Of a stretch of DNA of 678 bases, positions 1 through 678 are shown piece by piece. The translations under genes were made by a program, and so were the position numbers. The notes under the pieces are model-generated. The model did no database searches, was not told where the DNA came from, and worked only from the letters and a program-made list of their open reading frames with translations. The number at the start of each line of letters is the position of its first letter. Position 1 is the stretch's first letter. Source of the stretch: Escherichia coli (GTDB taxonomy: Bacteria; Pseudomonadota; Gammaproteobacteria; Enterobacterales; Enterobacteriaceae); NCBI RefSeq assembly GCF_003334335.1, contig NZ_QOWQ01000160.1; one strand, written 5' to 3'.

Positions 1-43
1 TACTCCGTGACTGCTCTGCCACCCTTTTTAAAGTGAATTTTGT

Positions 44-70
44 GATGCGGTGAATGCGGCTATGCGCACG
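44..70. repeat. Three imperfect tandem ~9-bp repeats with an ATGCGG core
   Basis: GATGCGGTG (44-52), AATGCGGCT (53-61), ATGCGCACG (62-70). The first copy lies within the inner end of the left inverted-repeat arm. Confidence 0.4.
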
Positions 71-84
71 CGGAACAGTTAAAA

Positions 85-105
85 CCGTAAAGTGGTCTTT
101 TACGG
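85..105. other. Short hairpin-capable inverted repeat (CCGTAAA, 7-nt loop, TTTACGG); on the - strand it is followed by TTTT
   Basis: 85-91 CCGTAAA pairs with 99-105 TTTACGG. Reverse complement of 76-84 is TTTTAACTG, giving a weak intrinsic-terminator-like shape on the - strand only. Confidence 0.25.
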
Positions 106-135
106 GGCGTAACGGGCATCCTTCTGTATTCCGGC

Positions 136-157
136 GTTAATTGTTAACTGGTTAACG
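136..157. promoter_or_regulatory. Tandem GTTAAC palindromes / three GTTAA repeats (GTTAATT-GTTAACTG-GTTAACG); candidate operator for an unknown regulator
   Basis: GTTAA at 136-140, 143-147 and 151-155 with 7-8 bp period. Two full GTTAAC palindromes (143-148, 151-156) are separated by TG. Located about 55-75 nt upstream of ATG 212. Confidence 0.3.
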
Positions 158-199
158 TCACCTGGAGGCACCAGGCACCGCATCACAAAATTCATTGTT

Positions 200-211: not shown

Positions 212-400
212 ATGGAAACGTTATTACCAAACGTTAATACGTCTGAAGGTTGTTTTGATATTGGTGTTCTGCTCAGTAACCGGGAGTTTACGGAAGATGC
301 CATTAAGATGAGAAAATATGAACCTTATCTTCTCAATGATAATTCCATACTTTCCAGAATTGCCCTTCTTGAACTTGGTATTATCGGAGAACAGCAGTGA
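212..400 (+). CDS. Hypothetical small acidic protein, 62 aa (METLLPNVNTSEGCFDIGVLLSNREF...GIIGEQQ); function unknown
   Basis: ATG at 212-214 is the first start after an in-frame stop (TAA 110-112). GAGGA at 200-204 sits 7 nt upstream. ORF ends at TGA 398-400, overlapping the next start. Hand count: about 10 acidic vs 5 basic residues. No homolog recognised from memory. Confidence 0.55.
   Translation: METLLPNVNTSEGCFDIGVLLSNREFTEDAIKMRKYEPYLLNDNSILSRIALLELGIIGEQQ
386..390 (+). promoter_or_regulatory. Shine-Dalgarno-like motif (GGAGA) for the 397-585 ORF, lying inside the upstream ORF
   Basis: GGAGA with a 6-nt spacer to GTG 397. Confidence 0.4.
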
Positions 401-585
401 CTTCAGCATTTGCACTGGTGATGACCGTTTTTCTTATAACGGGTGAGCCACAAAATGTGATTACCGGAATTTATGACAGTAAGTCATCCTGCATTCAGGT
501 AAGGGACGAACAAAAAATCCCCGGTGAATGCCTCCCGTTAAAAAAAGTATCGCTGAACCTGAATAACGAAATACCGGCTGGATAA
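397..585 (+). CDS. Hypothetical small protein, 62 aa, with N-terminal hydrophobic segment (SAFALVMTVFLITG) and two Cys; candidate small membrane or exported peptide
   Basis: GTG start at 397-399 overlaps the upstream stop as GTGA, a classic translational-coupling arrangement. GGAGA at 386-390 sits 6 nt upstream. Alternative in-frame starts are GTG 418 and ATG 421, neither with an SD. Stop is TAA 583-585. Confidence 0.45.
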   Translation: MTSAFALVMTVFLITGEPQNVITGIYDSKSSCIQVRDEQKIPGECLPLKKVSLNLNNEIPAG

Positions 586-597
586 CCCGCCAGCCAT
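574..597 (+). terminator. Weak stem-loop over the stop codon of the second ORF (GGCTGG, 8-nt loop, CCAGCC); possible terminator or mRNA 3' stabiliser
   Basis: 576-581 GGCTGG pairs with 590-595 CCAGCC; the TAA stop (583-585) is in the loop. Followed by ATATTAA, not a clean U-tract, so intrinsic termination is uncertain. Confidence 0.2.
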
Positions 598-678
598 ATT
601 AACGCCATACCAACGGATTAAAAATGCCAGCAATGGCAGGGATTCGTTCACCCTGAAATCTGTAATGAGGTTAAAACA

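Follow-up and report, generated by a model that had tools for sequence, protein, structure and literature searches.

Results

Genes and features of the window

The DNA analysed here, a 678-nt stretch referred to as the window, comes from a Qin-like lambdoid prophage of E. coli and covers the dicF-dicB-ydfD segment of its early-left 'dicB operon' (Table 1). Identical sequence (100%) is present in E. coli chromosomes, where dicB and a gene for a 'DUF1482 family protein' are annotated. The product of the latter gene, ORF2 of the window, shares 48% identity with YdfD, the lysis protein of K-12. The ATG of an exonuclease gene lies just beyond the window, at position 681, 95 nt 3' of the DUF1482 stop codon and in the same orientation; the further gene on which a first-pass annotation of this DNA had made a partial attenuator depend is therefore present. 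This exonuclease gene (2,472 nt) is followed by a DUF4224 (xis-like) gene and then by an integrase gene. In L002, a 12.7-kb prophage locus that is 100% identical to the window, genes for a DicA-like repressor, DUF1391 (ydfA), dicB, DUF1482, the exonuclease, DUF4224 and the integrase all lie on the + strand.

Table 1. Positions of genes, RNA features and sequence elements in the 678-nt window
Feature	Positions	Strand	Details
DicF sRNA, 3' part	1-24	+	Truncated by the window edge; Rfam model positions 29-52
Structured spacer between dicF and dicB	34-194	+	Closed by a perfect 19-bp inverted repeat, arms 34-52 and 176-194
dicB CDS	212-400	+	Cell division inhibitor, 62 aa
DUF1482 (PF07358)/YdfD-like CDS (ORF2)	397-585	+	62 aa; GTG start overlaps the dicB stop (GTGA)
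Codons CCG GCT GGA (Pro-Ala-Gly)	574-582	+	Conserved DUF1482 C-terminus; fix the left arm of the stem
Stem-loop	576-595	+	Left arm GGCTGG (576-581), loop ATAACCCG (582-589), right arm CCAGCC (590-595)
TAA stop codon of the DUF1482/YdfD-like ORF	583-585	+	Within the loop of the stem-loop
Untranslated spacer, DUF1482 stop to exonuclease start	586-678	+	C-rich and G-poor at 586-624
Second small hairpin, TGCCA-GCAA-TGGCA	625-638	+	Left edge of the widely conserved exonuclease leader
GAGG Shine-Dalgarno of the downstream exonuclease gene	667-670	+	

A scan for promoter-like sites detected no sigma-70-like promoter on either strand, in positions 5600-7400 of L002 or in the window. As the exonuclease, xis and integrase genes thus have no promoter of their own, the operon would have to be read through past the stem-loop that surrounds the DUF1482 stop codon, and we infer that this stem-loop is intercistronic, inside a read-through operon.

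Upstream, the 180-nt spacer between dicF and dicB (25-205) folds at -71.7 kcal/mol with a z-score of -5.6, and the duplex that closes it is a probable RNase III substrate. The RNase III cut giving the 72-nt DicF species has been placed by the literature where the left arm of this repeat lies (~10-28 nt past the DicF 3' end). Positions 22-244 match the full Rfam STnc100 model at 36.8 bits, below its gathering score of 47. This and the partial DicF match, both upstream, were the only Rfam 15 matches; at 574-600 there was none up to E = 1.

Downstream, the second hairpin together with the exonuclease leader (624-678) shows 90-96% conservation, both across more than 3000 E. coli genomes, K-12 Qin among them, and in phages mEp460, Tritos, Evi and HannyBb. 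These genomes come in addition to those that carry the stem-bearing allele and match the window over 624-678 only. Because this segment is shared despite a ydfD allele that is only ~50% identical, a mosaic junction can be placed at ~600-624, and the hairpin at 625-638 appears from these alignments to mark the left edge of the exonuclease module.

Two side observations concern the window. Positions 611-616 differ between alleles by an exact 6-nt inversion (CAACGG vs CCGTTG), and the CCGTTG form creates a new spacer hairpin, ATTAACG-N6-CGTTGAT. In addition, the window holds three matches to a terminator-like consensus (85-105, 575-596 and 625-638; 0.8 expected), and all three are on the minus strand, despite every annotated gene being on the + strand.

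A stem-loop around the DUF1482 stop codon

The first-pass annotation had described arms GGCTGG and CCAGCC flanking the TAA stop codon of ORF2, and both the pairing and the coordinates are exact: the arms form six perfect pairs and the TAA ends the ORF at 397-585. By sequence inspection, the pairs are all Watson-Crick (five G-C and one U-A) and enclose an 8-nt loop (A582 T583 A584 A585 C586 C587 C588 G589), the surrounding sequence being ATACC GGCTGG ATAACCCG CCAGCC ATATTAAC. The 8 nt immediately 3' of the stem, ATATTAAC, include three Ts with a longest run of two, so the + strand has no U-tract.

The bare stem-loop has a folding energy of -10.0 kcal/mol, or -11.5 kcal/mol with two flanking bases on each side (RNAfold). 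Every stem pair has a probability of at least 0.99 whether 61, 159, 282, 479 or 678 nt are folded, and thus no competing structure is predicted. Compared with the upstream spacer, however, the fold is only marginally unusual: a 61-nt segment gives z = -1.88, with 9 of 200 shuffles folding equally well, against z = -5.6 for 25-205. We defined a comparable hairpin as a perfect 6-bp stem with at least five G/C and a loop of 3-10 nt. At least one such hairpin is found in 6% of dinucleotide shuffles of the window. Comparable hairpins are commoner in real prophage DNA than in shuffles, with three distinct examples in L002 (0.24 per kb) and 0.55 hits per kb across all long prophage loci (943 kb), the latter figure counting nested hits and redundant loci. 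From natural prophage DNA, 0.16-0.37 comparable hairpins are expected per 678 nt, and the stem therefore exceeds chance only modestly.

The two arms differ in what constrains them. Among 13 diverse homologues of the DUF1482 protein, G62 never changes and P60 and A61 hardly do; the left arm is dictated by conserved Pro-Ala-Gly codons, and the right arm alone is free, non-coding sequence.

Variation within the stem-bearing allele

We sampled the allele from 80 + 120 viral-contig loci, annotated genomes and E. albertii, which yielded 16 core variants and 34 haplotypes of positions 556-645. None of the 16 core variants or 34 haplotypes has lost the stem (-8.7 to -13.0 kcal/mol), and every haplotype retains at least six pairs when G-U is counted. 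The left arm shows zero variation across the 34 haplotypes. In the right arm, C595T and C590T each yield a G-U pair, and the sole pair-breaking change, C590G (L064), occurs on a haplotype with A596G, which has gained an outer C575-G596 pair. The common variants G589T and A596G extend the stem to 7 bp.

Counted by pair over the 34 haplotypes, four of the six are invariant and two vary on one side, to G-U only, with no double change; no compensatory pair change was found in this alignment. Forced-variant pattern scans for changes at 579, a synonymous site of the left arm, or at its partner 592 found no such allele in viral contigs, and in metagenomes gave 20 hits, each an unrelated match by chance. 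The right arm has undergone at least three substitution events in six sites (~0.5 per site) and the rest of the spacer (597-623) at least 10 in 27 sites (0.37 per site). The right arm is thus no less variable than the rest of the spacer, and purifying selection on the pairing is not demonstrated, although the outer pair gained on the C590G haplotype and the common variants that lengthen the stem hint in the opposite direction.

Two further features of this allele were noted. The non-coding loop bases 586-589 are hypervariable, with changes in each of the four columns, at least seven substitution events in the 34 haplotypes, a minimum of 1.75 events per site and ~5 times the rate of the rest of the spacer. 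Increased mutability upon hairpin extrusion is one candidate cause of this hypervariability. Separately, several contigs (L016 and L038; protein P0001) carry a stop-loss change, TAA to TAC at 583-585, which lengthens the DUF1482 protein by 12 residues, to 74 aa, reading through the right arm.

Sister alleles and distribution

The gene order dicB-ydfD-exonuclease is kept in K-12 Qin, in phage mEp460, in locus L083 and in E. albertii locus L088. No comparable stem was found near the stop codon of the ydfD alleles of these four, which end ...PAGL* or ...PAGLKTAP* and use the codons CCG GCA GGN. Since these sister alleles have no stem, the operon works without it, and the stem lies outside the operon's conserved design.

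The stem-bearing allele is present in ~1,097 of 5,426 complete E. coli genomes, O157:H7 included, and the O157:H7 copy has an identical stem, GGCTGGATAACCCGCCAGCC. An alignment search of genome contigs for DUF1482 returned three loci, two from E. albertii and one from a metagenome-assembled genome (MAG) contig that is probably Escherichia contamination; the family thus appears, on these alignments, to be essentially confined to Escherichia. The MAG contig (L087; SFGN01000167.1) is labelled Lachnospiraceae and carries the same Escherichia prophage segment with 84% protein identity, which is probably a case of binning contamination.

Discussion

The stem-loop at the end of the DUF1482 gene is ordinary: a small stem-loop in one allele of a known prophage locus, and nothing shows that it has been maintained by evolution. 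It does not belong to the conserved regulatory equipment of the operon. Our preferred reading, held with roughly even confidence, is that it is a passive, allele-specific stem-loop that is read through by RNA polymerase and that can slow 3'-to-5' exonucleases once the RNA around it is no longer translated. The left arm is supplied by the conserved Pro-Ala-Gly codons, and the right arm would be six spacer nucleotides that happen to complement them.

A ribosome paused at a stop codon covers roughly a dozen nucleotides downstream. A ribosome terminating at the TAA would therefore cover both arms, so that the stem should form only after translation of the RNA has ceased at this point. Such masking speaks against any co-transcriptional function as long as translation is coupled, and fits a role in decay, if the stem has any role. 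Stable stem-loops impede PNPase and RNase II, for example at the REP sequences of malE-malF, and the stem could similarly slow these enzymes when they enter from downstream ends, so that the dicF-dicB-DUF1482 segment of the transcript might survive modestly better than exo-xis-int. By analogy with such cases, a generic slowing of decay is likely to be the only effect of the stem, and this effect could be nil. Of the first-pass proposal of a 3' mRNA-stabilising hairpin, the physical possibility survives; signs of selection do not accompany it, given zero compensatory changes, a right arm that behaves like spacer and sister alleles that have no stem.

Transcript data from K-12 bear on these points. 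Northern blots of K-12 have been read as showing a ydfABC-dicFB-ydfD species and no longer ydfDE species, and the former accumulates upon RNase E inactivation (2023 J. Bacteriol., PMC10448788). We take the '1,608-nt' size given for this species as a qualitative inference of its authors, and not as an end mapped at nucleotide level (PMC10448788). As the species arises even though K-12 has no stem, the stem is not required for 3' ends near the spacer. For O157:H7 Sakai, Term-seq data have been deposited (GEO GSE143631, cited in PMC7547250).

A possible alternative, which we regard as less probable than the preferred reading, is that the stem is pure coincidence with no measurable consequence, in which coding-constrained CCGGCTGG chances on a complementary sequence 8 nt further downstream, the allele being young and little diverged. 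The modest statistics (z = -1.88 and 0.16-0.37 hairpins of this kind expected per 678 nt of prophage DNA) are in keeping with this, as are the stemless sister alleles, the lack of covariation, a right arm that varies as spacer does and the existence of stop-loss variants that are translated straight across that arm. However, a stem of -10 kcal/mol with pair probabilities above 0.99 will form on untranslated RNA, where such stems generally impede 3' exonucleases, and at least six pairs counting G-U persist in 34 of 34 haplotypes.

It is unlikely that the stem acts on the + strand as a weak non-canonical or factor-dependent terminator, or as a pause site, after the ydfD-like gene, to be overridden at prophage induction. 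The K-12 transcript that was read as ending after ydfD, with none longer (PMC10448788), would suit such an element, and the spacer past the stem is rut-like in being rich in C (33%) and poor in G (13%) at 586-624. However, there is no U-tract, the K-12 locus yields its ydfD-ending species with no stem, a terminating ribosome would be expected to mask the left arm during coupled transcription and translation, and the exonuclease, xis and integrase genes have no promoter of their own. It is also unlikely that the U-less stem is an allele-specific determinant of RNA 3' ends of any kind, whether by factor-dependent termination, by pausing or as a processing barrier. If it were, the dose of toxic DicB and YdfD-like protein would be uncoupled from exo-xis-int in about one-fifth of E. 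coli genomes, and the variable loop at 586-589 would reflect hairpin formation in vivo.

We consider it very unlikely that the element is a minus-strand intrinsic terminator that blocks antisense transcription into the dicB-ydfD module: the scan flags 596-575 (seven pairs counting one G-T, tail GTATTTCGTT) and 638-625 (tail TTTTTAAT), and the three matches in the window are all on this strand where 0.8 were expected, but no minus-strand gene or promoter-like site lies within 800 nt downstream, the U-tract of 575-596 is interrupted and 2 nt off the stem, the minus-strand fold has a z-score of -1.58, and the T-rich tail is the complement of conserved Asn-Asn-Glu-Ile codons and hence no independent feature. 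Scarcely any weight attaches to a DNA-level palindrome (6-N8-6) that would bind a protein or form a junction at which phage modules recombine, since, even with a mosaic junction nearby (624-678 being common to more than 3000 genomes with a ydfD allele ~50% identical), that junction lies at ~600-624, off the stem, the palindrome is unique in the 12.7-kb L002 segment even at two mismatches, and one half of it is coding sequence.

In lysogens the operon is repressed. During induction, the passive stem-loop that we favour would, if it slows decay, tip the balance slightly between the toxic DicB and YdfD-like lysis protein and the recombination genes. The case also carries a more general caution. 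G+C-rich stems at stop codons that have no U-tract are common in prophage DNA, and half of this one is explained by conserved codons; a regulatory reading of such a stem is unwarranted without transcript-end data.

Comparison with known systems

Overlap between a terminator stem and a stop codon is common in bacteria, and the stem at 576-595 shares several properties with canonical intrinsic terminators, which have a G+C-rich stem of at least 5 bp and a loop of 3-8 nt; here the stem is 6 bp with five G-C pairs, the loop is 8 nt and the position is the end of a CDS. However, a canonical terminator has a U-tract 3' of its stem, where this one has ATATTAAC, and it ends a transcription unit, whereas this stem precedes a co-oriented, promoterless exonuclease gene. 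A consensus scan of the window found no terminator-like site on the + strand. The first-pass argument that the missing T-run speaks against a canonical intrinsic terminator is thus upheld, by the lack of a + strand U-tract and by the exonuclease gene 95 nt past the stop codon.

Two other functions that the first-pass annotation had put forward are not supported. A transcription attenuator, partial or otherwise, is rejected because there is no terminator, no alternative pairing (stem probability at least 0.99) and no Rfam match to a leader or riboswitch. RNase III sites need ~20 bp or more of double-stranded RNA, and a stem of 6-7 bp is far too short to be an RNase III processing site; the 19-bp duplex of 34-52 with 176-194 does qualify. 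We also rejected a REP or BIME element, as there is no REP consensus and the stem is confined to one DUF1482 allele and unique in L002.

Lambdoid nut sites resemble the stem in being small hairpins in the transcript of a phage early-left operon. The boxB of such sites is a 5-bp stem with a 5-nt GNRA-like loop, and lies beside a boxA (CGCTCTTA) near the operon promoter. The stem described here has an 8-nt loop, lies downstream of dicF, dicB and the ydfD-like gene and has no boxA, the best boxA-like string, CGCTGAAC at 551-558, matching at five of eight positions; a nut site was rejected on these grounds.

Within the dicB operon itself, the stem shares its transcript with the terminator of DicF and with an RNase III duplex, structures that shape which parts of the RNA accumulate (Faubladier et al., 1990, summarised in PMC9438474 and PMC10448788). 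These structures lie upstream (1-194) and are long and highly significant, whereas the stem at 576-595 is short, marginally significant and undocumented.

Finally, stem-loops that stabilise mRNA in intercistronic or 3' positions include the REP hairpins of malE-malF and the intercistronic hairpins of the Rhodobacter puf operon. Unlike these, the stem at 576-595 belongs to a single locus, has only 6-7 bp, is half coding with a stop codon in its loop, and is unconserved across alleles of the operon. Like them, it is a stable, G+C-rich stem-loop between cistrons, with no U-tract, and is placed where it could shield the upstream cistrons from 3'-to-5' exonucleases. By analogy, therefore, generic intercistronic stabiliser hairpins would seem to be the known elements that it most resembles.
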